Source of the DNA: an uncultured Gemmatimonadota bacterium
GTDB lineage: Bacteria; JAAXHH01
Direction of reading: 5' to 3'
DNA: 64,000 nucleotides
NCBI GenBank assembly: GCA_951812955.1
Contig: OX638340.1
Location: 256,001-320,000, forward strand
Of the stretch, positions 25,565 to 52,897 are shown in pieces (the first letter of the stretch is position 1; every line of letters starts with the position of its first letter). Made by a program: the position numbers and the translations under genes. Below the pieces are notes generated by a model that was not told the origin of the DNA, did not search any database, and saw nothing but the letters and a program-made list of their open reading frames with translations.

Positions 25565-25597
25565 CATGCGGTCCGCCAGCCCATGCGGTCCGCCAGG
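25565..25597. repeat. Tandem direct duplication, 16-17 bp x2 (ccatgcggtccgccag), in a convergent intergenic region
   Basis: Read directly: ccatgcggtccgccag at 25565-25580, then cccatgcggtccgccag at 25581-25597. Confidence 0.9.
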
Positions 25598-25617
25598 TAC
25601 GAGTTCACTCCCGCCTG

Positions 25618-27588
25618 CTACCAGTCGTGTATCATGTGGCCCTGTCCGGGATAGAACAAGGCATCCACAAAGAACGACAGAACGATACCCAGCGTGTAAC
25701 CGAGCAGGACGCCAAGGAAGAACCGCTGACCCGTGCGGTAGGTGCTGGTCCCGACCTTCAGCAGAATGAACTTGGCGAGCCATGCGAGGAAGACGGACAG
25801 GATCGAGTCCCGGATATTGCTGGCGAAACAAATGGCGAAACCCACCGGGGCGAGGGGCCACCAGACCAGCCAGTGCCGGAGTTTCAGCAGCAACAGGAAG
25901 GTCGCCGCGCCAGCCGCCATGAACCAGGGCTCGTTCTGACCCAGGGACAGCGGGTTCTTCATCCAGGTTACGATCTCGTCGTAGTAGTTCTTGTTGAGCC
26001 CGTCGAACGCCCCGCCTCCGAAGTTATATGCTCCGATCGCATAGCCCGACTGTATCGAGTAAGCCAACGCCGTGACCATGCTGACGAGAAAGGTGGCGGC
26101 GAGTACGAGCAGCAACCCTTTCTTCCTCGGCCAGAATCCGTCCGCCAGGCGATCTGCCAGCACGACCGAACCCATACCCAGCCCGCGCCAGTTCCGCGCA
26201 TACGCGCTGGCCAGGCCCAGTGCCGTAAGACTTGGCGCCGATACGTTCCCTGAACCCAGGGACAGCACCGTGATCTGGTGCGCGTTCACGGGCAAATCGA
26301 GGAACACCACCCCTGTTTCGGCGATTACCTTTGTCGTGCCGAAGTATAGAATGAACAGAAATGCCAGGAACACCGCCATCACCGAAAACGCCAGGCCGGA
26401 CTGGTACAGCCATGCGCAGATAAATACGGATCCAAGCAGGAATCCGATCACGGCGGTCCTGTAGGACACGAGTTCCTTTGTATCGTCCAGTCCGGAGTCC
26501 CGCCCAATCGCTTTCTTGACTACGCCCGCCAGGTGCCGCCTGGCGGCCCAGAGACTGTAACCCACGTACACCAGGAATCCGCCGAAAAACTGTGCGTTGA
26601 CGCCGCCGCTGCCGCCGGGACCGCTGCTGGCCGTGTTGAGTCCTATGTAATTCAGTGCGCCGATTTCGAGCAGCCCCAGCATGAAGAAGACCCAGATGCT
26701 CAGCAGGATATCTACGTTGATAAAGTAGCCGAAGCCGAGCATGTAGGGGCTGATACGCAGGGGAATGGAGGGGAACATCGGACTCAATTGGAGCGGAGTC
26801 TCGAAGAAGGTGCCGACGGGGAGCTGCGGCACGATATGGGCGAAGGACACGATATTCCAGAGTGCGATGGCCAGCGCGAGGATGAACCCGATCTGGAACA
26901 GGCGGTCGTAGACGAGTCCTGGCCAGCGGCCGGGAGACTGGTCCCCGGCTATGAGTTCGAGGGGTACCTGGACGAGGGGAAAAGTTAGCCGCTCGTACTC
27001 CACCCACTGTTTTCTGAATATGGTAGCCACGCAGGCGCCGACGACGAATATCGCGACGAAAAAGCTCATCCACCAGGCGACGGGGATGATCCACGGGGAC
27101 CAGGGTATGGCGCCTCCCGGAGGCAGTCCTTCGTAAAACCACCCCATGGCGTTGTTCTGGTTGCTCGCCACGAGCCATTCCGGCAGAAAGGGGTGGAAGA
27201 GCTCCACCCACTGGTTTTCCGGCTGGGCGAAGTAAAAGGGCGTCGATATGATGGTCAGGAAGTACGACACGAAGGCCTTGCCGGGTATGAGGCTCGAAAT
27301 CAGCAGGATGCAGAAGATCAGCGCGAGTTCTCTGCCGGTGAATGCGGCCCGTTGGGACATACCGCGTACCAGGGGATTGTACACGAAGGTGACGAGCAGA
27401 AAGAGCGCCAGGGCGGAAATGGGCAGGTGGGCCACCGACATGCGGGACGTGTGCAGGATATAGGTCCCGTACGTCACCCAGATGTTGAGGATGATGGCCA
27501 GGACCAGTCCCGTGGCGAGTGACCTCGACGTGATCACGGAGGCTGGCGGGGATTCCCTTGTCGGTATATGCTTGGTTGTGTCAGTCAA
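25618..27588 (-). CDS. Large polytopic membrane protein of unknown function (paralog of 60969..62993)
   Basis: 656 aa, 14 or more hydrophobic helices and glycine-rich loops. Shares the ERLTFPL block (VEYERLTFPLVQVPLEL) with the second copy. Confidence 0.6.
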   Translation of the reverse strand: MTDTTKHIPTRESPPASVITSRSLATGLVLAIILNIWVTYGTYILHTSRMSVAHLPISALALFLLVTFVYNPLVRGMSQRAAFTGRELALIFCILLISSLIPGKAFVSYFLTIISTPFYFAQPENQWVELFHPFLPEWLVASNQNNAMGWFYEGLPPGGAIPWSPWIIPVAWWMSFFVAIFVVGACVATIFRKQWVEYERLTFPLVQVPLELIAGDQSPGRWPGLVYDRLFQIGFILALAIALWNIVSFAHIVPQLPVGTFFETPLQLSPMFPSIPLRISPYMLGFGYFINVDILLSIWVFFMLGLLEIGALNYIGLNTASSGPGGSGGVNAQFFGGFLVYVGYSLWAARRHLAGVVKKAIGRDSGLDDTKELVSYRTAVIGFLLGSVFICAWLYQSGLAFSVMAVFLAFLFILYFGTTKVIAETGVVFLDLPVNAHQITVLSLGSGNVSAPSLTALGLASAYARNWRGLGMGSVVLADRLADGFWPRKKGLLLVLAATFLVSMVTALAYSIQSGYAIGAYNFGGGAFDGLNKNYYDEIVTWMKNPLSLGQNEPWFMAAGAATFLLLLKLRHWLVWWPLAPVGFAICFASNIRDSILSVFLAWLAKFILLKVGTSTYRTGQRFFLGVLLGYTLGIVLSFFVDALFYPGQGHMIHDW

Positions 27589-27620
27589 TCAGGTCTCGCA
27601 TCGGTCTATGGATACCGGAT

Positions 27621-27687
27621 CAGCAGGCCGTCGCGGCGTATGTCCTTGCGTCAGCAGGCCGTCGCGGCGTATGTCCTTGCGTCAGGC
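27621..27687. repeat. Tandem direct duplication, 31 bp x2 plus partial third, between the sulfatase stop and the membrane-protein start
   Basis: cagcaggccgtcgcggcgtatgtccttgcgt at 27621-27651 and again at 27652-27682, then cagGCAG. The sulfatase stop (27682-27684) overlaps the end of copy 2. Confidence 0.9.
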
Positions 27688-29031
27688 AGACTGGCGTTCC
27701 CGCCATTCGACCTCCATGGGATCGGGGATGGCGTAGGGTTTGACGCGTTGTTCGTGCAGCCACTCCGACAGGTAGTGATCCATGCGTTGCTGGATTTCCG
27801 GCCGTTCCAGGGCCAGGTTGTACGTCTGATTCGGGTCGTTACGCATATCATACAAGGCCACTGGATCGAACCGGTAACCGAAGTCGTCGTACGTCCTGAC
27901 CATGAGATGGCCGGGTGTCCGCACCGCCCGTTGCAACGTGTACAGGCCGTGACCCCAGACCAGGAAGTCGTGCAGGTGGCAGCGTCCGGTCGCGAGTCCT
28001 TCCGCGAAAGACCGGCCGTCATAGTATTCCGGTACTTCCCCGCCAATCAGGTCGATCAGCGTGGCGCTGAAATCTACATTGTATAGCAGGTCGTCACAAG
28101 AGGATCCTGGCGGCGTAGTCCCCGGCCACTTGATGATCAGCGGGACCCGGTGTATGCATTCGTCGGCGCAGACGTGATCCCCGTAGATGCCGTGCTCTCC
28201 CATGGCCTCGCCGTGATCCGCCGAGACGATGACCGCCGTGTCGTCCAGGCTGCCCAGGGCGTCCAGCACCTGCTCCACGTGATGGTCGGCGTACCGGATC
28301 TCCGCGTCGTATCCGGTCACCAGGTGATTCAGGTCGTCCGTGTTCCGGATGGCGTCCGGCATATTCGGCGTGGGACTGGGCCGGTTCTGGGGAAAGAGGT
28401 GGGACGCGGTGAACCAACCGTCGATGTCCTGGTGGCCGCGGATCGCTTCGTTGTCCGGCCAGCTCACCGCCGGCGGATGGGCCGTCATACGTTCGAACCG
28501 GTCGCGGGGGGCTTCGTAAACCCGGTGCGGGTCCCAGTAGTTGATGTACAGGAAGTAATCGTCCCGGTCGCCGTTCGCGGCGATCCATTTCAGTACGGCT
28601 TCGTTGACCTCGTCCGCCGTCTCGTCCCCCGTCTTCAGGTTGGGCGAATGGAACTCCGACCAGCCCAGCCCGAACCAGGTCGCGCAGTGCCGGGTGGGGA
28701 AGTTGGAGAAGCAGACCGTGTCGTAGCCGTGCTGGCGCAGCCGTCTTTGCACCAACTGGTTCCGCTCGTCGGGCCCGCCGTAGCGCTGCTCCAGGATGTG
28801 AAGCCTGGAAGCGGGACCGCCGTGGGTCACCACGCCGTTGTTGATCCCGAAACGGCCGGTTATCCAGCCGTGCCGCGAAGGCATGCAGGGAGAGTCTGCG
28901 CAGTAGTACCGGTCGAACCGCATCCCCTGCGCGGCGATTTCATCGATGGCGGGCGAGGTGGGCCGGCCGTAGCCGTAGCAACCCAGGTGGTCGGGCCTCA
29001 GACTGTCGATGTCGAAATAGACGATGCGCAA
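27682..29031 (-). CDS. Sulfatase (formylglycine-dependent arylsulfatase family), no signal peptide
   Basis: N-terminal YCADSPCMPSRHGWITGR matches the C-x-P-x-R...TG sulfatase signature. The protein starts directly in the catalytic core, so it is predicted cytoplasmic. Confidence 0.85.
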   Translation of the reverse strand: MRIVYFDIDSLRPDHLGCYGYGRPTSPAIDEIAAQGMRFDRYYCADSPCMPSRHGWITGRFGINNGVVTHGGPASRLHILEQRYGGPDERNQLVQRRLRQHGYDTVCFSNFPTRHCATWFGLGWSEFHSPNLKTGDETADEVNEAVLKWIAANGDRDDYFLYINYWDPHRVYEAPRDRFERMTAHPPAVSWPDNEAIRGHQDIDGWFTASHLFPQNRPSPTPNMPDAIRNTDDLNHLVTGYDAEIRYADHHVEQVLDALGSLDDTAVIVSADHGEAMGEHGIYGDHVCADECIHRVPLIIKWPGTTPPGSSCDDLLYNVDFSATLIDLIGGEVPEYYDGRSFAEGLATGRCHLHDFLVWGHGLYTLQRAVRTPGHLMVRTYDDFGYRFDPVALYDMRNDPNQTYNLALERPEIQQRMDHYLSEWLHEQRVKPYAIPDPMEVEWRERQSA

Positions 29032-29070
29032 GGAGGATTACCGGAATCCTGTGTATATTGAGGGAGACCG

Positions 29071-30351
29071 CTACGCCGCAACGGCCTTGTCGATGATTAC
29101 CTTCATCTTGTCGCCGTGTTTGTGTCGGCTGGCGGCTTCGATGAGGGCTTCGATGGGCAGAAACCCGTTGTCCTGGAGCCAGTGGGCGATGGCGGCCAGT
29201 GCGGCGCCTTTCGGTCCGCCCGTCTTTCTGAAATCCCCGGTCACCACGTTGGACGGACCGGACTGATCGGGCGGATCGAGCGGACCGGGACTCCCTCCAA
29301 GCTCGGTACCAAGCTTCTCGTCCGCGATCACAAGGGTGTGGCCGCCGATGCGGGACTGCACCTTGTCCAGCCCATCCTGCGATATGACGATCATGATGTC
29401 GGGACAGTCGATCCCGGTGTAATGGATGGGGTCCCTGGAGAGGATGACTTCCGCGACGGAAAACCCCGTGCCGATCGTGATGGGGTAATCGCCCTTCTTG
29501 GTGGCGGACAGGCCGGCCGTAATGCCCGCGGTGGACAGCAGGTCACCCGCGGACTGAATGGCCTCACCGGCCGAACCGGCGACGATGATCTCCAGGCGGC
29601 CGTCCAGCGGCGCATCGCATGTGCGTTCGATTGGTTTCAATCCATCCAGCAGGGAGCGGCCGGTAGCCCGGTGCGGCATGCCAACCGCGCGACTGTTCCG
29701 CGTTACTACGCTCTCGTAGTCCGCCGTATCATGGAGTTCCTGTACTTTCCTCAATCCGTACGCAGGACACATCTCCACGATTTCGATGAGGGAGAATCCG
29801 GAGGTGGACAGGGCCTCCTTCCAAAGCTCTGACGTGTCCTTGCCGATGAACGTCCGTGCGGTGTACGCCGCGCCGGCGTTGTGCGCCAGGGCGCAGATGT
29901 CGTATCCTGGCACGGCCGATTCCGGGCGCTCCGGTTCTTTGAACTCGGTGGAGGACAGTCCACTGGTCTGTCCGCCCGTCATCCCGTATACCATGTTGTT
30001 CTGAACCACGAGGGTGAGATCCAGATTGTGCCGTGCCGCTTCGAGCAGGTGCTGCAGGCCGATCGTGGCGCCACCGTCGCCCTGCAGGGCGATGATCTTC
30101 TTCTCCGGATGCTCCAGTCCCATGCGGATGCCCATGGCCAGGGCGACCGCCCGGCCGTGGAGCCCGTGAATGGTGTGGCAGGTCAGGAGCGGATCAACGA
30201 GCCCCGTGCAGCCGATGTCGCTTACCACGATGACGTCGAGCGGGTCCACGTCCATGTCCGCGATCGCCTTGCTCATGGATTTGTTGGCGACGGTATGACC
30301 ACAGCCCGGGCAGTAGGGCATTTTCAGGTCATTCAGGATGGTTTCCTGCAT
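29071..30351 (-). CDS. korB: 2-oxoacid:ferredoxin oxidoreductase beta subunit (TPP-binding) fused to a C-terminal gamma-subunit domain
   Basis: N-terminal CPGCGH..DIGC..GLHGRA, then GDGG...VYGMTGGQ TPP motifs. C-terminal about 150 aa (LEIIVAGSAGEAIQSAGDLL...GDYPITIGTGFSVAEV) looks like a POR-gamma domain. GGAAGGAG SD. Overlaps korA by 19 bp. Confidence 0.75.
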   Translation of the reverse strand: MQETILNDLKMPYCPGCGHTVANKSMSKAIADMDVDPLDVIVVSDIGCTGLVDPLLTCHTIHGLHGRAVALAMGIRMGLEHPEKKIIALQGDGGATIGLQHLLEAARHNLDLTLVVQNNMVYGMTGGQTSGLSSTEFKEPERPESAVPGYDICALAHNAGAAYTARTFIGKDTSELWKEALSTSGFSLIEIVEMCPAYGLRKVQELHDTADYESVVTRNSRAVGMPHRATGRSLLDGLKPIERTCDAPLDGRLEIIVAGSAGEAIQSAGDLLSTAGITAGLSATKKGDYPITIGTGFSVAEVILSRDPIHYTGIDCPDIMIVISQDGLDKVQSRIGGHTLVIADEKLGTELGGSPGPLDPPDQSGPSNVVTGDFRKTGGPKGAALAAIAHWLQDNGFLPIEALIEAASRHKHGDKMKVIIDKAVAA

Positions 30352-31466
30352 TGCCTTACTCCTTCCGCGATCTCCTGCGGGGTGATCATATTGCCGATTT
30401 TGTTGACGCCGAATACCCGGCCGTCCTGACGGTTGCCAAAGAGCAGTTCCCGTAGCAGGCCGGAGATATTTTCTTCCACGACGACGATGTGCTCGTATGC
30501 ATCAAGCAACTCGTAGATACGCGGCGGTACCGGCAGCAGCGTTTTCATGACCAGGAGCGAAACGGAGTCGCCGCCCGAGCGGAGTGAACCGACCGCTTCC
30601 CTCGCGGCTTCCGCCGAGATGCCGTAGGTCAGGATGACCGTGTCGGCGTCCTCGGCCCGATCATGGTCGTAAAAGGTGTAATCATCGATACGCTGTTCGA
30701 TCTTGTTCTTGAGCCGTTCGGTATTGCCGAGGGCTTCGGGGCTGTTCTTCTGCGTAATACCTTCCATGTCATGGGTAGATGAATTCAGCCGGACCTGGTG
30801 CAGGTCGTTGCCCAGTGGCAGGAATGGCGGCGCCAGGTTCCCGTTGACCCCGTAAGTCTTGTACTCCCCATTTCCTTCGAACACGTGGCGTTCCGCCCGC
30901 TGCACTTCCCTCAAGCTGGAAATGTTCATGTTCTGGTTGGTCATGACCATTTCCTTCGAGGTCAATAACACCACCGGTGTGCGGAGGTTTACCGACGTAT
31001 GCACGCTGGCGGCCGCCATGTCCCAGCAATCGTTCAGGTTCGAGGGACAGAACACCGGAATCGAATACCCTCCGGAGATGCAACCCCTTAGGAGGAGCAG
31101 ATCCCCCTGGCCGCCCGTGGTGGCCGAACCGGTACTCGGCCCGAGGCGCTGGGCGAGGATAATGACCATGGGCAGTTCCATCATGAAGGACATGTTGATG
31201 GATTCGATCATCAGGGCGAAGCCTGGAAAGGCGGAGGCGGTGACAGGAAACACGCCCGAAGACGAAAAACCTGCGGACCACTGTAGCGCGGTGATCTCGT
31301 CCGGTGCTTCCAGGGCAATGGGGATGCGCTGTTTGGCGCCCGCGAAGAGCCAGTTGACGGGGGTGATGGGGTATCCGATGTAAGCGCCCACCCCGGCCCG
31401 GGCCATCGCTTCGATGATCAGTCTGGATCCGTCCAGAAAGACCATGCGTTCACCGTCAGCAGTCAT
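30333..31466 (-). CDS. korA: 2-oxoacid:ferredoxin oxidoreductase alpha subunit
   Basis: 377 aa. ...GYPITPVN...AGFSSSGVFPVTASAFPGFALM...GPSTGSATTGGQGD... are the signature blocks of KorA/PorA domains I and II. Confidence 0.8.
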   Translation of the reverse strand: MTADGERMVFLDGSRLIIEAMARAGVGAYIGYPITPVNWLFAGAKQRIPIALEAPDEITALQWSAGFSSSGVFPVTASAFPGFALMIESINMSFMMELPMVIILAQRLGPSTGSATTGGQGDLLLLRGCISGGYSIPVFCPSNLNDCWDMAAASVHTSVNLRTPVVLLTSKEMVMTNQNMNISSLREVQRAERHVFEGNGEYKTYGVNGNLAPPFLPLGNDLHQVRLNSSTHDMEGITQKNSPEALGNTERLKNKIEQRIDDYTFYDHDRAEDADTVILTYGISAEAAREAVGSLRSGGDSVSLLVMKTLLPVPPRIYELLDAYEHIVVVEENISGLLRELLFGNRQDGRVFGVNKIGNMITPQEIAEGVRQCRKPS

Positions 31467-34542: not shown

Positions 34543-34563
34543 CCGTAATGCTTCCGCCTAGAT

Positions 34564-35355: not shown

Positions 35356-35394
35356 CTAAACGTTACCTCGTCATGACAGTACGGCTGTACCTGG

Positions 35395-36597: not shown

Positions 36598-36656
36598 GAG
36601 ACCGTCATTTGGTTTAGTGGGTAGAAACTCCGTTGCGTGCACGGGTATTGCTTGCT

Positions 36657-36687
36657 GCGGAATTCCGCCGGAACGTCCGGAATCCGG
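36657..36687. promoter_or_regulatory. Cluster of three palindromes built on CCGGA/TCCGG upstream of the acyl-CoA dehydrogenase operon (candidate operator)
   Basis: GCGGAATTCCGC is a perfect 12-bp palindrome at 36657-36668. CCGGA-acg-TCCGG and CCGGA-a-TCCGG follow, 60-90 bp upstream of the ACAD start. Confidence 0.35.
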
Positions 36688-36690
36688 AGC

Positions 36691-39152: not shown

Positions 39153-39176
39153 GGCTATTCACGGGTAAGATTTAAA

Positions 39177-39236
39177 TACCGTTATGCCAGGCAAAATACC
39201 GTTATGCCAGGCAAAATACCGTATTATCAGGCAAAC
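39177..39236. repeat. Tandem direct repeat, 20 bp x3 (third copy degenerate), upstream of polA
   Basis: taccgttatgccaggcaaaa at 39177-39196 and 39197-39216, then taccgtattatcaggcaaac at 39217-39236. Confidence 0.9.
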
Positions 39237-39317: not shown

Positions 39318-42080
39318 ATGACCGAGTCGCAGAAGACCCTCTTTCTCCTGGATGGCATGGCCCTGGCCTACCGCGGTCATTTCGGCCTGATCCGCAACCC
39401 GAGGATGACCTCGACGGGCATGAACGTTTCCATGGTGTTCGCCATCGCCAATACCATCCTGGGCATTTTGAATAAGAACAAACCCACCCACATCGCCGCG
39501 GTGTTCGACACGCCCGAGCCCACTCATCGGCACGAACAGTATCCCGAGTACAAGGCGCAGCGGGACGCCATGCCCGAGGACCTGAGCATCGCCCTGCCCT
39601 ACCTGTTCCGGTTGATCGAGGGATTCAATATCCCCGTGATCCGCGTGCCCGGCTGGGAGGCCGACGACGTGATCGGCACCCTCGCGAAACAGGCCGACGA
39701 AGCGGGGTATACTACCTTCATGGTCACGCCGGACAAGGACTATGCGCAACTCGTCTCGGAGCAGTCCTTCATCTGCAAGCCCGGGAACACCGGGGACAAC
39801 TTCGAAACCATGGGCGTGGACGACGTGCTGGAGAAATGGGGGATCGAGCGCATCGACCAGGTAATCGACATGCTTGGCCTGATGGGCGACGCCAGCGACA
39901 ATGTGCCCGGCGTACCGGGAGTCGGCGAGAAGACCGCGCAGAAGCTCATCGCACAGTTCGGTTCCGTGGAGAATCTGCTTGATAACACGGAACAGTTGAA
40001 GGGCAAGCAGAAAGAGCGGATCGAGGAAAACCGGGATATTGCCCTGTTATCGAAGAGTCTCGTCACCATCGAACGGAACGTCCCGCTCGAGGTCACGCCG
40101 GATTCGTTCACCGTGAAAGACAGGTGCGATGAAGACCTGAAGAAACTGTTTGTCGAACTGGAGTTCAATACCCTGGGCAAGCGGCTATTCGGCGACGACT
40201 TCTCGGCGGCGCCAAGGTTGACCGTCGCCGGCAGCCAGGAAGACCTGTTCTCCGATGACCAGTTGAAGACGATTGCGGACGTGGAACACGATTACCGGTG
40301 CGTCGATAGCCCCGAATCCCGCGCCGCGCTCATCGAAGCACTGTCCCGTGCCTCTTCTTTCTGCTTCGACATGGAGACGACCAGCCTGGATCCCAAGACC
40401 TGTGAGATCCTCGGCTTTGCCTTCGCGATCGAGCCCCACACCGGATTCTACGTGCCCATGCCGGACGGACGGGAGGATGTACTGCGGGTCGCAGACGAAT
40501 TCCAATTCCTCTTCGACGATACCGGCAAGGAACTCATCGGGCACAACATCAAGTTCGATCTGTCCGTGCTCCGGTGGCACGGGATAACCGTCTCCTGCCG
40601 CATCTTCGACACCATGCTGGCGGCCTACGTGACCGTGCCGGACCTGCGGAGGACCATGGACTATCTGTCGCAGGCCCTCCTGGGCTACACGCCGATCTCC
40701 ATCACCACCCTCATCGGCGAGAAGGGCGAAGAGCAGGGCACGCTCAAGGATGCGCCGCTGGAGAAAGTCGTCGAATACGCGGCGGAAGACGCGGATGTCA
40801 CGCTGCAGCTAGCGGCATTGCTGCGGCCCCGGATCGGCGAGATGAACCAGGATACGGTCTTCACCGACATCGAGTGTCCCCTGGTGCCCGCCCTGGTGGA
40901 AATGGAACACGAAGGCGTGCAGATGGACGTGGGGCAGTTGGAGCACCTTTCCAGTCTGCTGGACGAAGAGATACAGCGGTCCTCGGACCGGATCACCGAA
41001 CTGGCAGGGGAACCCGTCGATTTCAATTCGGCAAAGCAGCTTGGTCACATCCTCTTCGACAAGCTGCAGATCGATCCAAACGCCAAGCGCACAGCCAAGA
41101 CCGGGCAGTATTCGACGGCGGAAGCCGTGCTCCGCAGACTGGCGCCCAAGCACGAAATCGTGGAGCAGATCCTTCATTACCGGATGTGTACCAAGCTCAA
41201 TTCCGTGTACGTGAGCCAACTGCCCCATTCCGTATTCCAGCAAACCGGTCGGGTACATACCTCCTATGAACAGGCCGTGATCGCCACCGGCCGGATCCAG
41301 TCCCACGGACCCAACCTGCAGACCATTCCGGTCCGCACGGAGATGGGCCGCCAGATCCGAAAGGCCTTCGTGCCCCGGGACGACGACTTTTTCCTGATGG
41401 CCGCGGACTATTCCCAGATCGAACTGCGCATCGCGGCCGAACTCAGCCGGGACGAAGGCATGATGGAGACCTTCATTCAGAAAGAGGACATCCACTCCGC
41501 TACGGCCATGAAAATCTATGACGTGGATCCTGACGGGGTGACCGACGAGATGCGCAGGCGCGCCAAGACCGTCAATTTCGGCATCATCTACGGCATCTCC
41601 GCCTTCGGGCTGGCCGAACGCCTCAACATCCCGAGGGGACAGGGCCAGGAATTGATCGACCAGTATTTCGCGAAGTATCCCGGCACGCGCAAGTACATGG
41701 ACGAAACGATCAAATTCGCGGAAGAGAACGGTTTCGTCGAGACCATGACAGGCCGGCGTCGGTACCTGCGTGACATTAATTCACGCAACAACACGACCAA
41801 GCGCGCCGAGGAGCGCGTCGCCATCAACTCCCGCATCCAGGGCACGGCGGCCGATCTGATCAAGCTGGCCATGACCCGGATCCACGAAGAGTTGAAAAAG
41901 CGGGAATGCAGGACCCGCATGCTGCTGCAGGTGCATGATGAACTCGTATTCGACCTGCATAAATCGGAAGAAGAGACCCTGCCCGGGCTGATCGAGGAGT
42001 GCATGCGGGGCGCACTGCCCATGACCGTGCCCATCGAGGTGGAGATCGGGATCGGCGCGAACTGGTTGGAAGCGCACTAG
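39318..42080 (+). CDS. polA: DNA polymerase I (5'-3' exonuclease, 3'-5' exonuclease and polymerase domains)
   Basis: 921 aa from MTESQKTLFLLDGMALAYRGHF. Includes ...VTPDKDYAQLV... (5' nuclease), ...CFDMETTSLD... (3' exo), and ...RRAKTVNFGIIYGIS...LQVHDELVFD... (pol motifs A-C). Confidence 0.95.
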   Translation: MTESQKTLFLLDGMALAYRGHFGLIRNPRMTSTGMNVSMVFAIANTILGILNKNKPTHIAAVFDTPEPTHRHEQYPEYKAQRDAMPEDLSIALPYLFRLIEGFNIPVIRVPGWEADDVIGTLAKQADEAGYTTFMVTPDKDYAQLVSEQSFICKPGNTGDNFETMGVDDVLEKWGIERIDQVIDMLGLMGDASDNVPGVPGVGEKTAQKLIAQFGSVENLLDNTEQLKGKQKERIEENRDIALLSKSLVTIERNVPLEVTPDSFTVKDRCDEDLKKLFVELEFNTLGKRLFGDDFSAAPRLTVAGSQEDLFSDDQLKTIADVEHDYRCVDSPESRAALIEALSRASSFCFDMETTSLDPKTCEILGFAFAIEPHTGFYVPMPDGREDVLRVADEFQFLFDDTGKELIGHNIKFDLSVLRWHGITVSCRIFDTMLAAYVTVPDLRRTMDYLSQALLGYTPISITTLIGEKGEEQGTLKDAPLEKVVEYAAEDADVTLQLAALLRPRIGEMNQDTVFTDIECPLVPALVEMEHEGVQMDVGQLEHLSSLLDEEIQRSSDRITELAGEPVDFNSAKQLGHILFDKLQIDPNAKRTAKTGQYSTAEAVLRRLAPKHEIVEQILHYRMCTKLNSVYVSQLPHSVFQQTGRVHTSYEQAVIATGRIQSHGPNLQTIPVRTEMGRQIRKAFVPRDDDFFLMAADYSQIELRIAAELSRDEGMMETFIQKEDIHSATAMKIYDVDPDGVTDEMRRRAKTVNFGIIYGISAFGLAERLNIPRGQGQELIDQYFAKYPGTRKYMDETIKFAEENGFVETMTGRRRYLRDINSRNNTTKRAEERVAINSRIQGTAADLIKLAMTRIHEELKKRECRTRMLLQVHDELVFDLHKSEEETLPGLIEECMRGALPMTVPIEVEIGIGANWLEAH

Positions 42081-42091
42081 CAAGCCGGCCG

Positions 42092-42182
42092 TAACTGGAA
42101 GATGGACATTGTCTGGAAGATTGATAGTTAACTGGAAGATGGACAGCGATCTGGAGATTCTGATCGCAGGCGGCCTGGAAGA
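42092..42182. repeat. Tandem ~37-38 bp repeat x2 plus partial third, containing five CTGGA(A)GA(T) cores at about 18-24 bp spacing, upstream of the Rieske-fusion operon
   Basis: taactggaagatggaca at 42092-42108 and 42129-42145. tctggaagattgata at 42112-42126 matches tctggagattctgat at 42150-42164. A fifth core ctggaaga is at 42175-42182. Confidence 0.85.
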
Positions 42183-42221: not shown

Positions 42222-44012
42222 ATGAGCTCAGGAAACGGCTGGATCCGGGTCGGAACTACGACCGACATAGCGCCCGGGGAATCCCGCGCCGTTAGAATCA
42301 GCGAGGGCCGCAGCGTTGCCCTCTTCAACGTCAACGGCCGGATACATGCTACCGACAACCAATGTCCCCACATGGGGTTTCCACTGACCCGCGGCGTGGT
42401 GAAGGACGGCATCCTGACGTGCGACTGGCATGGCCGCAGTTTCGATCTGGAAGGCGGCGGCTGCTTCAATTACGAATGCGACGACCTGGAGACGTACCCC
42501 GTCGACATTCGAGGAGATGAACTGTGGGTGCAGGCCGGGGACGCCACCTACAAGCGGCGGGACCAGCACCTGCAACTGCTCTGGGAGGGCCTGCTGAGCG
42601 GGGACTCGTGGACGATTTCGAAGGCCACTGCCCTCCTTCTGTCCGGTGGTGTTTCAGAACACGACATCGTGCAGTTGATCTTGCGCCACCTGGGCCGTCA
42701 CGTCGCGTCGGAACGGGACGCGGGCGGCGGCGGCGATGTCGTTTCACTCCTGGTCTCCGGTCTTGAAGTCGGCAAAAGGTTTGACGGAGAAGACCGGCTG
42801 ATGGCGTTGTCGCTGGCCGGCCGCGCAGCGTCGGGTAGGGCGTCGGAAAGGCTCGAGGTCATTACGCTGCCCCCTCCCGTCCGCTGGGATCAGATAGACG
42901 ACTGGGTACGCATGTTTTCCCGAAACATGCAGGATTTCCGTATCGAACGGTGTTTGCACACGGCCTGCGAGAACGGCCACCAGGACCATATCTTCAAACT
43001 GTTGTTCGAGTGTGCGGTGGCGCCGTACTTCCTCGGATTTTCCCGAAACGTGGCCAGCCTGGGTGATCTCGCAAGGGTGGTGGATACCTTCGGATGGGGC
43101 GAGGCGTCCGAACTGGTCTGCAACCTCGGCGCAAAGATGACGGGCCGAGGGCGCGACGAGCCGGAGCGGTTTCACCGGGATGCCGTCCGGCTGCTCACCG
43201 AACTCGCGCCTGAACTGGAATCACATGATTACGAAGGGAACACGCGCACGGAATACGACGAGAACGCCCTCGTGGACGCCCTGTTGAGCGTCGATATCGA
43301 GCGGTCTTTCGAAGCCGTGACACGGGCCCTGCGGGACGGCGTGGCGATCGAGCGTCTTATCACGACCTTCGTGCTGCTCGCCGCCGACCGCATGGCGCGT
43401 ACGCCCGTGAACGTCGACGCGGGGTGGGGACCGCTGTCCACCGAGTTCAACCTGGCGGCTTCCCTGCGACATGTCCACGCATACGGTGGGCCCGCTGCAG
43501 CGGCGAAGGGCCTGTACCATGCGGCCTGGCAGATTTTCGACAACCGATGGATCAATATCCCCGCACGGTCGCTCGACGAACCCCTTCCCGCCCATCGAAC
43601 GGACACACCGGACGCGGCAGCCGCTTCGGATCTCATTGTCCATTCCATCAAGTCGCTGGATATCCACGGGGTGGGCGATCAGGTGGTGGGTTACCTCAAC
43701 AGCGGATTCGACGGGTCGGACCTGCTCAAGGAAGTGGGACGGGCGATCCTGTGGGACGATACCAACATGGAGCTCCTTCCCACACTGCGCGTCGCGTTCA
43801 ACGAATGGGAAGGTTCAGGGGGTGGCGCAGGCGGCGGAGACGCAAGCGGGGGTGGCGCAGGTGGAAAGGGCCATCCGTCCCGGTATCAGCTCCTGGTGGG
43901 ACTGGTGCGCTACGCCACGGATGTGCGATTGAACAAGAACAGCATGGCCTCCATCAACACGGCCATGCGATTTTCTGAAGGCCGGACGACCGTAGAGGTG
44001 TTCGACGAATAA
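42222..44012 (+). CDS. Rieske [2Fe-2S] domain (NirD / Rieske-ferredoxin-like) fused to a ~480-aa C-terminal domain of unknown function
   Basis: N-terminus CPHMGFPLTRGVVKDGILTCDWHG (CxH-x16-CxxH) ...LETYPV. The rest is helical-looking, with no motif I recognise. Confidence 0.7.
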   Translation: MSSGNGWIRVGTTTDIAPGESRAVRISEGRSVALFNVNGRIHATDNQCPHMGFPLTRGVVKDGILTCDWHGRSFDLEGGGCFNYECDDLETYPVDIRGDELWVQAGDATYKRRDQHLQLLWEGLLSGDSWTISKATALLLSGGVSEHDIVQLILRHLGRHVASERDAGGGGDVVSLLVSGLEVGKRFDGEDRLMALSLAGRAASGRASERLEVITLPPPVRWDQIDDWVRMFSRNMQDFRIERCLHTACENGHQDHIFKLLFECAVAPYFLGFSRNVASLGDLARVVDTFGWGEASELVCNLGAKMTGRGRDEPERFHRDAVRLLTELAPELESHDYEGNTRTEYDENALVDALLSVDIERSFEAVTRALRDGVAIERLITTFVLLAADRMARTPVNVDAGWGPLSTEFNLAASLRHVHAYGGPAAAAKGLYHAAWQIFDNRWINIPARSLDEPLPAHRTDTPDAAAASDLIVHSIKSLDIHGVGDQVVGYLNSGFDGSDLLKEVGRAILWDDTNMELLPTLRVAFNEWEGSGGGAGGGDASGGGAGGKGHPSRYQLLVGLVRYATDVRLNKNSMASINTAMRFSEGRTTVEVFDE

Positions 44013-44036
44013 CGAACAACGGAGAGGTAACGGAAT

Positions 44037-45788
44037 ATGTCAACGGAACAAAACGGATTCGTACGGGTGGCGGCAACGGACGAAGTGGTGGACGGCAAGC
44101 CCAAGGCCGTCAAGGTGGAGGGAAGGAGCATCGCCCTCTTCAAGCATAACGGGTCGGTATACGCCACGGACAATCAATGTCCGCACATGGGATACCCGCT
44201 CACGAGAGGGCGCGTTCGCAACGGCGTGCTGACCTGCGACTGGCACGGATGGAGTTACGACCTCGGCGGCGGCGGTTGCTTCACCGGCGGGTGCGATGAC
44301 CTGGAGACCTTTCCGGTCGAGGTGCGAAACGGCGACGTGTTCGTGAACGTAAGCGAAGGCGGATCAAAAAGGTCGGACGCACACTTCCTGCTCTTGAAGG
44401 AAGGACTCTATTCAACGGATCAGTGGACCATCTCGAAGGCCGTGGCCATCATGCTGGCCCGGGGCGTGTCCGAGACGGACACGTTGAACCTCATCATCCG
44501 TCACGGCGGCCGTCACGTCGCGACTGAACGGGGCGCCAACGATGGTGGTGGAGAGGTCTCCGATTTCATCAATGGGATCAAGGTGGCCCGACAGTACGAG
44601 AGCGACGACCGGATCATCCCGTTGACCTTTGCCGCCCACGGGCTATCCGGTCGCGCGGGGGACCGGCCGAGCATCCAGCGGCTGCCCGATCCGATCACCT
44701 GGGAGAAAATCGAGGGATGGATCCGGGTGTTCTCCAAAGACAAGCAATGGGAAGGCATCGAGAAGTGCCTGATCACCGCCCGACGGCTGGGTGGACACGA
44801 TGGCGAGATCCTGCCGCTGCTCTACGAATGCGCCGTAGCCCCGCATTTCCTGGGCAATTCGAACAATTTGCTCAACATCGGCTACATCGCGGAAGTACTC
44901 GAGGAATTCGGCTGGGACGAAGCAGAGGAACTGGTCTGCAACCTCTCGGCCAAGATCCTGGGACAGGAGCGGGGACTGCCCGACGAGATCAGGCAGTCGG
45001 CCATCGACCGGTTCATCGCCGACACCGAAACGCTGGATTCCATCGGCGACAGACCATCTGACGGTTCCGACGCAGCCTTCGACGAAGACGCCTTCGCGGA
45101 GGGTCTGGTCAGCGGCGAAATCGGACCGACCTTCGGCGTGGTTACCCAGGCGCTCAAAGACGGCGTTTCTATCGAGCGCATCGTGACGACCATGGTGGTG
45201 CTCGCGGCGGACCGCATGGCGCGCACGCCGGTTAACATGAACCCGGGATGGGGAGGCCTGGTCCGCGAGATGATGATGGCCAGCGCAATCCGAAAGGCTT
45301 TGAGGTACGGTGGGCACCGAGTCGCCGCCCAGGGTCTGTACCACGTCGCCTGGCAATTCTACGGCGACCGGTGGCTGAATATCACCCATCGTCCGTTGTC
45401 CGAGGCGCGCGGAGACTTGCAGCCGGGCAGCGCGGACGAATCCGAAGCTATCGAAGGCGTCCTTTCTTCCATCGAGCAGATCCAGATCAGGGATATCGGA
45501 AGACAGACCCGGGATTACCTGCGGTCGGGGTACTCGGGCGACGCGTTGCTCCGGGAGCTCGGTCTCGTGATCCTCAAGGACGACAACGGCCGGAACATCC
45601 TGTCCACGCTGCGTACGATCTTCGACGAATGGACCTGGTGCGAAGATCACCCTTCGCGCAACCAGTTGCTGGTCGGCCTCGCACGCTGGGCCACCGACGT
45701 ACGCCGCGCCACGGGAAGCCAGTCCGCCGCCGCGACCGCCCTGCGATTCGCCAAGGGCCAGACCGCGGTGGACCTGTACGAGGCGTAA
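44037..45788 (+). CDS. Rieske-domain fusion protein, tandem paralog of 42222..44012
   Basis: CPHMGYPLTRGRVRNGVLTCDWHG. Conserved C-terminal blocks are shared with the paralog: RHxGRHVAxER, ECAVAPxFLG, ELVCNL, LAADRMARTPVN, GLYHxAWQ, LLVGLxRxATDVR. GGAGAGG SD; 24 bp after the upstream stop. Confidence 0.7.
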   Translation: MSTEQNGFVRVAATDEVVDGKPKAVKVEGRSIALFKHNGSVYATDNQCPHMGYPLTRGRVRNGVLTCDWHGWSYDLGGGGCFTGGCDDLETFPVEVRNGDVFVNVSEGGSKRSDAHFLLLKEGLYSTDQWTISKAVAIMLARGVSETDTLNLIIRHGGRHVATERGANDGGGEVSDFINGIKVARQYESDDRIIPLTFAAHGLSGRAGDRPSIQRLPDPITWEKIEGWIRVFSKDKQWEGIEKCLITARRLGGHDGEILPLLYECAVAPHFLGNSNNLLNIGYIAEVLEEFGWDEAEELVCNLSAKILGQERGLPDEIRQSAIDRFIADTETLDSIGDRPSDGSDAAFDEDAFAEGLVSGEIGPTFGVVTQALKDGVSIERIVTTMVVLAADRMARTPVNMNPGWGGLVREMMMASAIRKALRYGGHRVAAQGLYHVAWQFYGDRWLNITHRPLSEARGDLQPGSADESEAIEGVLSSIEQIQIRDIGRQTRDYLRSGYSGDALLRELGLVILKDDNGRNILSTLRTIFDEWTWCEDHPSRNQLLVGLARWATDVRRATGSQSAAATALRFAKGQTAVDLYEA

Positions 45789-47208: not shown

Positions 47209-47237
47209 TTGACAATGTATCAATTTTGATACACATT
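47209..47237 (+). promoter_or_regulatory. Candidate promoter (TTGACA) with an overlapping 8-bp inverted-repeat operator upstream of the toxin-antitoxin pair
   Basis: TTGACA at 47209-47214. TGTATCAA-tt-TTGATACA (47216-47233) is an inverted repeat where a -10 element would sit. The patch is AT-rich. Confidence 0.4.
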
Positions 47238-47248
47238 GAAACTACGAC

Positions 47249-47593
47249 ATGCACATATTGCGCGTCGTTTTTTACACGACTAAAACAGGTCGCGAACCGG
47301 TTCGTGACTGGATGGCGTCTCTAACCCGTGACGAAAAGAAGATTGTAGGAGTGGATTTAAAAACAGTCCAGTTCGGCTGGCCTTTGGGCATGCCACAAGT
47401 GCGCAAACTGGATCGTGGGATTTGGGAAGTAAGGTCAGCACTTAAAGGGCGCATAGCACGAGTGCTGTTCACAGTTCAAGGTAACAGCATCGTTTTATTA
47501 CACGGGTTCATCAAGAAGGTTCGTAAGACGCCCTATCAGGATCTACGTCTCGCAAAAACACGATTGGCTACGTTGGGAGATACGTCAGGATGA
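47249..47593 (+). CDS. Type II toxin, RelE/ParE superfamily (HigB / Gp49-like)
   Basis: 114 aa. ...GIWEVRSALKGRIARVLF...IVLLHGFIKKVRKTPYQDLRLAKTR matches the phage-related-protein toxin fold. Low local GC. Overlaps the next gene by ATGA. Confidence 0.75.
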   Translation: MHILRVVFYTTKTGREPVRDWMASLTRDEKKIVGVDLKTVQFGWPLGMPQVRKLDRGIWEVRSALKGRIARVLFTVQGNSIVLLHGFIKKVRKTPYQDLRLAKTRLATLGDTSG

Positions 47594-47877
47594 CTTCGGA
47601 TGACCGTCACATTGGAAGCGACTTCGATCTATACCTGAAGGAAGAAGGACTGATTGTAGAAGTTGAAAGAGTCGCGATAAAGCGTGCAGTCGCCTATCAA
47701 GTAGCTCAATTCATGTTGAATCAAGGTCTGAGCAAGACAGAAATGGCCCGGCGCATGCGCACAAGTCGCGCCTCACTGGATCGTCTTCTTGATCCTAACA
47801 ATGGATCTGTCACACTGCAAACCCTGGAACGGGCGGCCGATGCACTGGGACGGCGCTTGCATATCTCGCTGGTTTGA
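47590..47877 (+). CDS. HTH (XRE-type) antitoxin, HigA-like
   Basis: 95 aa. C-terminal helix-turn-helix ...QGLSKTEMARRMRTSRASLDRLL.... 4-bp overlap with the toxin gene. Confidence 0.7.
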   Translation: MTSDDRHIGSDFDLYLKEEGLIVEVERVAIKRAVAYQVAQFMLNQGLSKTEMARRMRTSRASLDRLLDPNNGSVTLQTLERAADALGRRLHISLV

Positions 47878-47984
47878 ACGTGACCTCGAAGGACTTCTGT
47901 AACGCAGTACTGATCTAGTTCACCATCCTGCGAGTACTCAATGTTGTGATCGTCAAATCACTGTGGACGGTTAGTCTCGCCTAC

Positions 47985-48839
47985 CTACACGCTATCCACC
48001 GCGGGGCGCGGCAGATCGGCCCAATGGCCGGTGGGATCGGATCCCTTGACGATCACGCCTTCCTTGTTCCAGTTCAGTTCGGCGCGGACGGAAGCGGCGC
48101 AGAACCTGAGCGTCAGGCCGCAGCGGCGGCGGTCCGACGTGTTGAGTCCCGATCCGTGCAATAGCAGGTCGCTGTGGAGCGAGATCTCTCCCGCCTCAAG
48201 CTCGATATCTACCTCGGTCCCGAACATCCCCACGTCTTCCACGGTCTGGTTGAGCACGTTGTTCTCGGCTTCCTCGCTCAGGTGGTAGGTCAGGTGCCCG
48301 TGGTGATGGGATCCCGCCACGAAGCGCATGCAGGCGTTGCCCGTGTCCGCATCGTCGATGGCCAGCCAGGCGGTCACCGTTTTCGACGGCGAGAGGGGCC
48401 AGAAACTGGCGTCCTGGTGCCAGTTGACGATCTTGCCGTCACCGGGAAGCTTGCAGAAGAAATGGGCGCCCCAGCCCACGACGTCGTCGCCCAGGAGGTC
48501 GCTGATGTAGGCGACGATCCGTGGCTCGTTCATGATATCGTGGACCATGCCCGATTTCAGGTGGGCCGATATGATGGAGTAATTGTGGTCCCCCCGCGCC
48601 ATGACTTTTTCGATCATGCCGTCGAATTCATTCCGTATGTCGCCGATCTCCCCATCCGAGTAGATCCTGAACGGCTTCAAGTAGCCTTGCTCATTGAACG
48701 TGTCGATCTGCGTGCTAGATAACACGGCCGGATGCTCGTTGCGTACCGGGTGGTACTGCAGGTCGCGGGACATGCGGACCAGGTCTTCCGGGGTAGGCAT
48801 CTGCTTGAAACGGGTGTCCTGCAGGGTCGTCTGCGCCAT
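47985..48839 (-). CDS. Phytanoyl-CoA dioxygenase (PhyH) family protein
   Basis: 284 aa. NWHQDASFW (HxD) and HGSG near the C-terminus. AGGAGG SD. Confidence 0.8.
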   Translation of the reverse strand: MAQTTLQDTRFKQMPTPEDLVRMSRDLQYHPVRNEHPAVLSSTQIDTFNEQGYLKPFRIYSDGEIGDIRNEFDGMIEKVMARGDHNYSIISAHLKSGMVHDIMNEPRIVAYISDLLGDDVVGWGAHFFCKLPGDGKIVNWHQDASFWPLSPSKTVTAWLAIDDADTGNACMRFVAGSHHHGHLTYHLSEEAENNVLNQTVEDVGMFGTEVDIELEAGEISLHSDLLLHGSGLNTSDRRRCGLTLRFCAASVRAELNWNKEGVIVKGSDPTGHWADLPRPAVDSV

Positions 48840-48878
48840 GGTTTTTCCTCCTGTTGGCCGTTGGCCCGATCGCCGTCT

Positions 48879-50057
48879 TCAGCCCTCGTTTTTTGTCTTC
48901 AGTATGACGTTCTCGGATTCCCTTTCCCATGTTTCGTTGTAGACCAGTGGCCTCGGTCTGCGCGGCGGGTAATCCGGAGGGGGATTATCCGGGTCGTTCA
49001 GCTCCAGGCGGTCGCGGCCCCGGGGCGCTTCGTACCAGTGTTTTTCCCGTTCGGCCGCTTCAATCTCCCTTCGGAGGATGAACTCCGCGTGATCGAAACC
49101 GGAGATCGCCGCGTCCGCCAGAAACACGCGGTGCACCTCGCGGCCGTCCCAGGTTTCCAGGTCCGGCAGGATCACGGGGCCCGTGCAGACCTGAAACTCG
49201 GCGTCTTCTTCGTTAATATTGATCAGATCCACAGGAAACTCAAGGGTAACCTGCATGTTCCGGTCCGCCCGGTCCGCCCGGTCCGCCTGGTCCGCCTGGC
49301 CAGCTTGGACTGTTTGGCTCGCCTGGCCTGCTTGACCCGTTTGACCCGTTTGACCCGCTAGGCCCGGCTGGTCCGGATCATGACAGACAGTCCAGGCGAT
49401 CCTGCCATTCATGAGATCCCGGTTGATCGTCGCGTCCACGACAGCCCGCGCGTCCGTCAGGGTTTCCTCGGAATCATACTGCCTGATATCGATTTCGTGG
49501 GCCTGGAATTGTTTTTCAAGCGGAGTACCCCTGTATTCGGCGGCCTCGTTACTCGGTCTTCGCGATATAGGGATGCTCTGACTTCGGCTAAACGCCATGC
49601 GCCATTCGTCGCTGGGAATCTGAAAGAGGTTTCGGCGGGCGATCGTGTATTCCGTGCGACACGGAGCGCCCAGGTAAATTTCGGTACGGTGTCCCGAGTC
49701 CAGGTCTTCCACGGTACAGGCCGCCTCGAGGTGGAACCGCACCTGGTAGGCCTGTCCCGGCACCCCGACAAAACCGCCCGTATACTTGTAGACCGGATCG
49801 GGTTTCCAGGGCGAGGATTTCCAGTGGAAAGAAGAGCGATGGAAAGCGATCATGGGCCTGGTCTTCGGCTTGGTCTTTGTGGCATTCGCATACCGGGCCA
49901 TCCGGGCTTGAAATGTGCTTCTCTCATTTGTACCGATTTGATGCGGCAATGTCCCAAAATGACCTATTCTACCCATGCAGGCAATACAAAACTGCGTTTC
50001 CGCCCTGCGGACCGCGACCGTGATTTTTGTTGCGAGCGTGGGGTCCGCAGGATACAT
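48879..50057 (-). CDS. Hypothetical protein with an internal 3-aa-periodic low-complexity tract (GQT/GQA/ADQ/ADR repeats)
   Basis: Long ORF with a clear stop at 48879. Start uncertain: candidate ATGs at 50057, 49976, 49901 and 49853, none with a good SD. The repeat PGLAGQTGQTGQAGQASQTVQAGQADQADRADRADR separates two non-repetitive domains. Confidence 0.35.
   Translation of the reverse strand: MYPADPTLATKITVAVRRAETQFCIACMGRIGHFGTLPHQIGTNERSTFQARMARYANATKTKPKTRPMIAFHRSSFHWKSSPWKPDPVYKYTGGFVGVPGQAYQVRFHLEAACTVEDLDSGHRTEIYLGAPCRTEYTIARRNLFQIPSDEWRMAFSRSQSIPISRRPSNEAAEYRGTPLEKQFQAHEIDIRQYDSEETLTDARAVVDATINRDLMNGRIAWTVCHDPDQPGLAGQTGQTGQAGQASQTVQAGQADQADRADRADRNMQVTLEFPVDLININEEDAEFQVCTGPVILPDLETWDGREVHRVFLADAAISGFDHAEFILRREIEAAEREKHWYEAPRGRDRLELNDPDNPPPDYPPRRPRPLVYNETWERESENVILKTKNEG
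49261..49380. repeat. 9-bp-periodic degenerate tandem repeat inside a CDS (encodes the GQx/ADx tract)
   Basis: cggtccgcc x3, tggtccgcc, ... tgacccgtt x2, tgacccgct ...; a decaying 9-mer array. Confidence 0.8.
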
Positions 50058-50080
50058 TGGAAGTACGTTTCAAGAAGCGT

Positions 50081-50142
50081 ATGACGGCGCGCAACTCCGG
50101 AAAATGACGGCGCGCAACTCCGGAAAATGACGGCGCGCAGCC
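50081..50142. repeat. Tandem direct repeat, 23 bp x2.7, upstream of aceE
   Basis: atgacggcgcgcaactccggaaa at 50081-50103 and 50104-50126, then atgacggcgcgcagcc at 50127-50142. Confidence 0.9.
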
Positions 50143-50172
50143 CTATCGTTCACATCGGTCCACGGACTGGAA

Positions 50173-52854
<2,682 letters not shown>

Positions 52855-52857
52855 CCG

Positions 52858-52897
52858 GCGTAACGCGTAACTCCGCGTAACGCGTACTCCGCGTCGG
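52858..52897. repeat. Tandem direct duplication, 16-17 bp x2 plus partial third, rich in self-complementary ACGCGT, between convergent genes
   Basis: gcgtaacgcgtaactcc at 52858-52874, gcgtaacgcgtactcc at 52875-52890, then gcgtcgg. The ACGCGT cores could pair as a hairpin. Confidence 0.85.

Follow-up and report, generated by a model that had tools for sequence, protein, structure and literature searches.

Tandem repeats in the spacers of the window

The 64,000-nt stretch of contig OX638340.1 analyzed here (an uncultured Gemmatimonadota bacterium; hereafter the window) carries six short head-to-tail repeats in its intergenic spacers, together with in-frame tracts in coding sequence. They are probably locus-specific minisatellites of the variable-number tandem repeat (VNTR) type, for which we infer a replication slippage or microhomology-mediated origin and near-neutral evolution. 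The repeats themselves are real, heritable, and evolutionarily dynamic, and they add examples from an uncultured clade of metagenome-assembled genomes (MAGs) to a known class of feature, the VNTR-like tandem duplications of bacteria.

All seven loci listed in an initial annotation, six intergenic duplications and one in-frame 9-bp tract within ~27 kb of the window, were recovered by Tandem Repeats Finder and an independent direct-repeat search, the coordinates agreeing within 1–3 bp (Table 1). The intergenic loci have units of 17, 31, 20, 19, 23, and 17 bp in 1.9–3.1 copies with 75–100% matches, which is the make-up of VNTR-type tandem duplications. All six fall into spacers of a crude open reading frame (ORF) map, in which the non-coding share of the window is ~5.8%; under uniform placement, this has a probability of P ~4e-8. 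The remaining 37 kb of the window contained no such repeats above score 50.

The genes around the repeats were identified by Pfam on the flanking ORFs (HEAT/PhyH, DUF6785, sulfatase, amidohydrolase, pyruvate dehydrogenase E1, and thioredoxin/TPR proteins and two Rieske-domain proteins), and the identity of polA was confirmed through relatives. These calls agree with the initial claim that the repeats occur both upstream of genes (polA, aceE, the Rieske gene, and DUF6785) and between convergent 3' ends (25564 and 52858). The 25564 repeat is located in a 94-bp spacer between the convergent HEAT/PhyH (24123–25523, plus strand) and DUF6785 (25618–27588, minus strand) genes, and the 52858 repeat in the 57 bp that separate the convergent aceE and thioredoxin/TPR genes. 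The 27620 repeat begins at the stop codon of the sulfatase gene (27682–29031, minus strand), 32 bp upstream of the DUF6785 ORF start. A 166-bp spacer upstream of polA, whose true start is probably the ATG at 39319, accommodates the 39174 repeat, and its 20-mer had 0 expected occurrences over 100 shuffles. The 50081 repeat ends 33 bp upstream of the aceE ATG (50173). The degenerate array at 42092 fills the 141-bp polA–Rieske spacer with units that resemble the final polA codons (AACTGGTTGGAAGCGCACTAG); the program call ends at 42155 (~3–5 CTGGAAG-type units), and the extension to ~42182 was made by eye. The previous description of this locus as ~37 bp x2 arose because two perfect 17-mers stand 37 bp apart. 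In coding sequence, the 49260 tracts belong to a hypothetical-protein ORF (48879–50057, minus strand) and encode a low-complexity linker, ...TGQTGQAGQ...ADRADRADR (TGQ/AGQ/ADR repeats), while the 29254 tract lies in gene 29071–30351, whose homologs in the relatives L146 and L147 carry TPP_enzyme_C and POR domains.

The units of the six loci are unrelated to each other. Searches with the aceE, polA-upstream, and Rieske-upstream units at 2–3 mismatches returned only own-locus matches in the 64 kb, apart from one near-match of a CTGGAAG unit inside aceE. A dispersed repeat family (REP/BIME, MITE, or ERIC-like) was rejected on this basis. A clustered regularly interspaced short palindromic repeat (CRISPR) array was likewise rejected: the copies abut head to tail without spacers, and Pfam detected no Cas family in 10 flanking proteins. 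Both results are in line with what had been proposed from the sequence. Transposon footprints or target-site duplications were also rejected, the units being too long and mobile genes being absent nearby.

Variation among related lineages

In a polA-based scan of species-representative genomes, the window fell within a clade of MAGs labelled Latescibacterota or Gemmatimonadota, for which several isolate names suggest sponge or coral hosts. The comparison material included L001 (OY762445.1, 94.5% nucleotide identity to the window), L002–L021 (syntenic with the window, 80–88% identity), L079 to L082 from a metagenome scan (85–96% identity), L141–L155 obtained through exact-protein look-ups, and a further clade species, L160. 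Four lineages stand at 94–97% identity: the window, L146, L153, and the OY762445 group, the latter represented in at least 7 metagenome samples that are 99.6–100% identical.

As in VNTRs, copy number differed between related lineages, namely at the 39174, 27620, 50081, 25564, 29254, and 56440 tracts and in the coding linker. The polA-upstream repeat has three copies in the window and L001, two in L079 and L080, and four in L082, and the sequence is single or unrecognizable in species at 80–88% identity. The 27620 unit is present as one copy flanked by ATCAG...ATCAG in the OY762445 group, as two diverged copies in L146, and as two identical copies in the window. At the 25564 spot, the duplication is 17 bp x2 in the window and L146 (with diverged copies in L146), 9 bp x2 (GGTCCATGC) in the OY762445 group, and 16 bp x3 in L153; the sequence GGTCC-ATGC-GGTCC-GCCAG looks ancestral here, having been duplicated in three ways. 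In L160, the 25564 spacer is only 18 bp long and the sulfatase and DUF6785 genes overlap, hence leaving no 27620 spacer; the 93–94-bp spacers of the window are therefore derived. The 50081 repeat has 2.6 copies in the window vs. 1.6 diverged copies in the OY762445 group, i.e., one extra 23-bp unit, and in other species the aceE-upstream arrays with a common core range from 0–1 to 4–6 diverged units. Outside the initial list, the 56440 repeat has a 17-bp unit (CTGCGAGCCGCCTGAGG on the L141 strand) in 3.1 copies in the OY762445 lineage (L141 7235–7287) vs. ~2 diverged ones in the window.

In coding sequence, the linker at 49260 measures 174 bp in the window, 183 bp in the OY762445 group, and 66–165 bp in other species, with 57 bp as the shortest and commonest state; its length is a multiple of 3 in every case. 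The 29254 tract has 9- and 18-bp indels relative to L147 and L146, the products being 426 aa (window ORF), 423 aa (L147), and 420 aa (L146). The 42092 and 52858 repeats were constant among the closest lineages. The former is common to the window, L001, and L079 and absent in L080 and L003, where the polA stop codon and the next start codon are just 19–20 bp apart. The latter is identical in the OY762445 group (L141–L144), in which the spacer differs at three bases downstream of the repeat; L021 has an unrelated spacer at this place, and L011 has none.

Within a population, the picture was one of stability. In the OY762445-like population, for which at least 7 metagenome assemblies (99.6–100% identity) were compared, no repeat locus differed, these being consensus assemblies that leave room for minority copy-number variants, and the sole indels were scaffold N-gaps. 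Fixation within a population, the other hallmark of VNTRs, was thus seen at the consensus level. Between the window and its 94–97% relatives, ~10 of 12 indels of at least 4 bp were repeat copy-number changes; these events were classified by eye, since the automatic tandem test under-called them where the aligner had split gaps. Duplications of at least 4 bp amounted to roughly 1 per 200 substitutions, a ratio that we judge unexceptional. This is the behavior of slowly evolving VNTRs rather than of contingency loci.

In short-read scaffolds, N-gaps occur exactly at two of the repeat spacers, L145:1388–1397 (52858 locus) and L153:6087–6186 (27620 locus); the repeats therefore break or confuse short-read assembly, which explains the breaks or N-gaps at these spacers.

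Unit lengths, duplication junctions, and mechanism

None of the six intergenic unit lengths is a multiple of 3, and all tandem repeats inside ORFs have units that are (9, 12, 15, 21, and 24 bp). This is the pattern expected when purifying selection filters a position-independent duplication process. Where unduplicated alleles were available, the unit was bounded by 4–5 nt of microhomology: ATCAG stands at both sides of the 31-bp unit in the single-copy allele, the 9-bp unit of the OY762445 group lies between GGTCC repeats, and a 14-bp unit of L002/L020 is associated with GAAG. Clean two-copy events across the clade had a residual homology of 0–5 nt, two of them having none. Pre-existing repeats, such as the 13-bp aceE core, have been extended by a further unit in register.

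The slippage or microhomology signature proposed initially is thus the best explanation, with the ATCAG-flanked single-copy allele, the residual homology, and the predominance of copy-number changes among the indels in its support. In such a scheme, replication slippage (slipped-strand mispairing, often between 3–5-nt microhomologies) would duplicate 9–36 bp of pre-existing local sequence. Selection would then act as a filter: units that are not multiples of 3 would persist just in spacers and where a gene begins or ends (across the start codon, across the stop codon, or immediately behind the latter) and would recur where they are tolerated, as at the polA stop codon, and 9- or 18-bp units would persist in frame in protein linkers. 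From two copies onward, slippage would add or remove units and homogenize the copies, and copy number and sequence would therefore drift between lineages a few percent apart while being fixed within a population. Such duplications would make up a large part of what lengthens spacers beyond 20–60 bp in this compact genome. The proposed origin fits published work on two points: tandem duplication through microhomology is a recognized class of mutation (bioRxiv 10.1101/2020.03.03.972455), and prokaryotic intergenic regions generally contain more close direct repeats than expected (PMC4060949).

Several observations weigh against this explanation. The repeat density of the window exceeds that of unrelated bacteria (7.8 vs. 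0.67 per 100 kb, strict definition below), which asks for something beyond a generic background. Some junctions have no microhomology, and the copies are perfect in the window where those of L146 are diverged, for which re-duplication or gene conversion has to be assumed. With no fewer than 7 unit types, duplications at the polA stop codon may recur more often than mere tolerance would lead one to expect. Finally, the aceE core (ATGACGGCGCGCA plus CCGG(A/C)AAA) has been kept through 4–6 diverged units across species at 80–86% identity, which could reflect constraint rather than neutral turnover.

Table 1. Tandem repeats and associated features in the window and, where a relative is named, in that relative
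Feature	Location	Strand	Basis
17 bp x1.9, two exact 16-mers CCATGCGGTCCGCCAG	25564–25596	none	Tandem Repeats Finder, direct-repeat search
31 bp x2.1, 100% identical	27620–27685	none	Tandem Repeats Finder, direct-repeat search
20 bp x3.1 (AAATACCGTTATGCCAGGCA), first two copies identical	39174–39235	none	Tandem Repeats Finder
Degenerate array, 19-bp period, CTGGAAGATGGACA-type units, ~5 cores	42092–42182	none	Tandem Repeats Finder, direct-repeat search
23 bp x2.6 (ATGACGGCGCGCAACTCCGGAAA), 100% identical	50081–50139	none	Tandem Repeats Finder, direct-repeat search
17 bp x2.2, nested GCGTAAC 7-mer	52858–52894	none	Tandem Repeats Finder
In-frame 9-bp periodic tracts	49260–49366	−	Tandem Repeats Finder, direct-repeat search, translation
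In-frame 9-bp x4 tract, absent from the initial list	29254–29289	−	Tandem Repeats Finder
17-bp-unit repeat, ~2 diverged units, absent from the initial list	56440–56480	none	Pairwise comparison with L141
Promoter-like block TTGCGA (50030–50035)-17 nt-TACATT (50053–50058)	50030–50058	+	Read from sequence
21 bp x2 spanning polA stop	L005:12770–12812		
26 bp x2.8 plus 11 bp x2 at polA stop	L007:12782–12853		
16 bp x2 at polA stop	L009:5368–5399		
18 bp x2 at polA stop	L014 ~12765–12800		
13 bp x2.7 at polA stop	L017:12794–12828		
14 bp x2 at polA stop	L002, L020, just after stop (window equivalent 42060–42100)		
Expanded 35356–35394 spacer	L002:6185–6258, L006:6140–6200, L010:6050–6109, L014:6097–6196, L019:6126–6220		

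Repeat density compared with other bacteria

Two definitions were used for the density estimates. By the strict one (unit 13–40 bp, at least 90% matches, not a multiple of 3), the clade had 1.85 repeats per 100 kb, and four 50-kb pieces of E. coli K-12 (200 kb) had 0. By the looser one (period at least 10, score at least 50, unit not a multiple of 3), the values per 100 kb were 9.4 for the window, 3.7 for twenty clade species (4.6 with L160), and 2.3 for 115 unrelated bacterial loci (1.65 Mb). The window was ~12x denser than the controls by the strict definition (P = 8e-5) and P ranged overall from 8e-5 to 4e-3, these values being uncorrected for the window having been flagged for its repeats. 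The clade-level excess was 2–2.8x (P = 0.01–0.03), or 2.0x including L160 (P = 0.01), and the density was uneven, with six intergenic repeats in the 21 kb of L160 and none in L161, L162, and L164. The initial description of the duplications as pervasive holds for this stretch and some relatives; a genome-wide propensity, the other part of that claim, is weakly supported. A higher mutation rate, relaxed selection, or chance clustering could each account for the excess in the window.

In an alternative reading, short tandem duplications arise or are retained more often than usual in the lineage or the whole clade, through altered or lost single-strand exonucleases or other anti-slippage functions, or through weak purifying selection in a host-associated population, and the repeats would be a genome-wide mutational signature. 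This is compatible with locus-specific slippage, to which it adds a cause for the excess, and we consider it possible, though on balance somewhat improbable. The graded densities of window, clade, controls, and E. coli speak for it, as do the twofold excess of the clade with L160, the six repeats of L160, and the absence of repeats from a syntenic relative of ~41% GC found in marine and Tara Oceans metagenomes. On the other hand, the clade excess is small and very uneven (0–6 per ~20 kb), the window itself is free of repeats over 37 kb, the choice of the window for its repeats introduces a selection bias, and the ratio of duplications to substitutions is just ~1:200. If the clade-level excess were true genome-wide, the clade would offer a natural system for studying spacer birth by gene-end duplication in compact bacterial genomes, and could show whether relaxed selection, e.g., in a host-associated lifestyle, lets duplications persist.

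Gene ends as recurrent duplication sites

The last codons of polA together with its stop codon have been tandemly duplicated in at least 7 ways across the clade species, with units of 13, 14, 16, 18, 21, 26, and ~19 bp (Table 1); the basal polA–Rieske spacer, as in L003 and L080, is 19–20 bp. Duplications that include a stop codon leave both neighboring genes intact. A 34 bp x2.1 duplication in L009 (2563–2634) covers the polA ribosome-binding region and start codon and creates two potential starts. The 39-bp spacer between co-directional minus-strand genes at 35356–35394 of the window is enlarged to 84–136 bp in several relatives, and the expansions are different tandem arrays of 19–26-bp units in up to 5 perfect copies, with distinct arrays in L002/L014, L006, L010, and L019. 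A plausible mutational reason for this recurrence is local microhomology, namely CTGGCTGG and the GAAG that the last polA codons share with the purine-rich ribosome-binding region.

A more far-reaching interpretation is that tandem duplication of gene termini is the main route by which spacers are created or enlarged from abutting or overlapping genes in this clade, at strongly recurrent hot spots, with a lineage-specific rise in microhomology-mediated duplication or retention under relaxed selection as the cause, and with some arrays (the aceE leader) possibly co-opted for regulation since. The candidate hot spots are the polA stop codon, with 7 or more independent unit types, the 35356–35394 spacer, with 4 or more arrays, and the 25564 spot, with three duplications within one species complex. 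We regard this extension as doubtful, roughly one chance among several.

Possible function of the arrays

The array upstream of aceE is the sole locus that hints at a function and may be regulatory. It lies between the start codon and a promoter-like block (Table 1). Of 12 species compared, 10 have kept this block, while the array that follows it varies; the block scored below the threshold of the consensus scan. The block is presumably a promoter, which would put the array within the aceE 5' leader. The core was recognizable in 1–6 units in 12 species, with one core copy in all of them. Judged from these sequence features, the array would be compatible with a repeated leader binding site and equally with serial duplication of a conserved basal element. 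A PdhR-type operator was rejected at this position, the motif being unlike the known PdhR site. The other five loci were absent or unrecognizable in species at 80–88% identity.

It is conceivable but unlikely that some of the arrays, foremost the aceE-upstream and perhaps also the polA-upstream one, have a regulatory function in cis. They would then consist of repeated operators or activator sites, copies of promoter elements, or a repeated protein-binding motif of the 5' leader, would be maintained by selection, and would tune expression through their copy number over evolutionary time. What argues for it is the position of the aceE array, with 2–6 units sharing a conserved core in the window, L001, L002, L006, L014, L020, and L021, the overlap of the polA unit with a segment aligning with a TATAAT or TATTAT-like hexamer of relatives (a putative -10 element), and the 20–23-bp periods, close to two helical turns. 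Against it, the units of the six loci share no sequence and have no copies elsewhere in the 64 kb, a promoter would not be expected at the two loci flanked by convergent 3' ends, the number of copies ranges freely from 0 to 6 among species with the same downstream gene, and the polA, Rieske, 25564, and 27620 repeats are missing in most relatives; moreover, ongoing duplication of a conserved basal element can explain the similarity of the cores. There was also no signal of RNA structure: the folding energies of all repeat regions, computed for the relevant strands, were not superior to those of shuffles (z-scores -1.9 to +0.4), and the Rfam scan of the whole window at gathering thresholds gave zero matches, so that a known or structured RNA was rejected. 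Scans for sigma-70 promoters and intrinsic terminators found nothing on the repeats, although the consensus may not apply to this phylum. Among the repeats, the aceE-leader array is the one locus that would possibly repay a regulatory study.

The initial annotation had also suggested that copy number could modulate expression in a phase-variation-like way. In such a contingency-locus reading, rapid reversible gain and loss of units within a population would switch or tune polA, aceE, the Rieske operon, and the membrane protein. Four of the repeats are indeed upstream of genes, their copy number differs between lineages, and perfect copies are the most slippage-prone state. Nevertheless, such contingency behavior is very improbable: the units are 16–31 bp long in just 2–4 copies, the genes concerned have housekeeping roles, convergent 3' ends flank two of the repeats, and at the consensus level the loci were identical, free of real indels, among at least 7 independent metagenome assemblies of the sister population. 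Assembly or polishing artefacts have a negligible chance of explaining the repeats: assemblers do struggle there, as the short-read N-gaps at L145 (52858 repeat) and L153 (27620 spacer) indicate, but the same repeats occur in independent assemblies from other samples and technologies with point differences and different copy numbers, and the diverged copies in L146 and L001 are incompatible with an artefact.

Comparison with known repeat systems

The repeats have their closest counterparts in the bacterial VNTR loci used for multiple-locus VNTR analysis (MLVA) typing, e.g., the mycobacterial interspersed repetitive unit (MIRU)-VNTR loci of Mycobacterium tuberculosis. Both consist of head-to-tail units of ~10–100 bp, mostly intergenic or in frame within genes, that are attributed to slipped-strand mispairing, and in both the copy number varies between related strains and is stable enough for fixation within a clone. 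The repeats described here differ in having 2–4 copies per locus and an unrelated unit at each locus, whereas MIRUs share sequence between loci, and in being known from uncultured MAGs. They would make good MLVA-like strain-level markers for uncultured Latescibacterota-labelled populations, with limited practical value.

The microhomology-mediated tandem duplications (MTDs) of Schizosaccharomyces pombe (bioRxiv 10.1101/2020.03.03.972455) are likewise short, form between short microhomologies, can be reverted by slippage, and favor in-frame products in coding sequence, comparable with the 31-, 9-, and 14-bp events with 4–5-nt flanking microhomology found here. In contrast, the MTDs are subclonal, rapidly reverting events detected in a eukaryote by ultra-deep sequencing, and those described here are fixed lineage differences, some with junctions lacking microhomology. 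The survey of Huang and Mrazek (PMC4060949) reported an excess of close direct repeats in prokaryotic intergenic regions, the same pattern as here; that work was statistical, without locus-level comparison, while the present window lies at the dense end and an allelic series is documented for it.

Tandem 17–23-bp units upstream of genes, and an aceE core conserved across species, also recall direct-repeat operators, activator sites, and iterons. Unlike those, the present loci have no common motif, no adjoining gene for a cognate regulator, and an unconstrained copy number, and two of them are not upstream of any gene. Classical contingency loci, as in Haemophilus, Neisseria, and Campylobacter, have 1–7-nt units in long runs and belong to surface or restriction-modification genes. 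The presence of repeats upstream of genes and the change of copy number by slippage are shared with them, but the present units are of 16–31 bp in 2–4 copies, are associated with housekeeping genes, and showed no within-population variation in the consensus assemblies.

Neighboring genes and other features of the window

Genes for tRNA and transfer-messenger RNA were absent from the window. The planktonic, marine-metagenome relative represented by L161 and L162 (MDTE01008031.1 and Tara Oceans run ERR599111) is syntenic with window positions 17000–39000. Its GC content is 41% vs. ~60% in the window's clade, its spacers are 27–38 bp long without tandem repeats, and the gene order has been conserved despite this large compositional shift.

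Downstream of polA, positions 42222–45788 are occupied by two adjacent paralogous genes of ~590 aa each with an N-terminal Rieske [2Fe-2S] domain. The remaining ~480 residues had no Pfam match, and the paralogues cross-hit at 62–77% nucleotide identity in relatives. The 48-bp spacer at 36643–36690 contains a ~250-bp segment in L001 (7122–7373), L011, L012, L013, L016, and L081, which is shorter in L021 and absent from the window, L080, and L082. This segment has conserved blocks (GTCACCCGTAtTTAC ... GTCAAGGGTATA) and no Rfam match, and could be an unannotated small gene or RNA. Inside the 21-bp spacer 34543–34563, the window has a 6-bp tandem duplication of CTAGAT relative to L001 (34558–34563).

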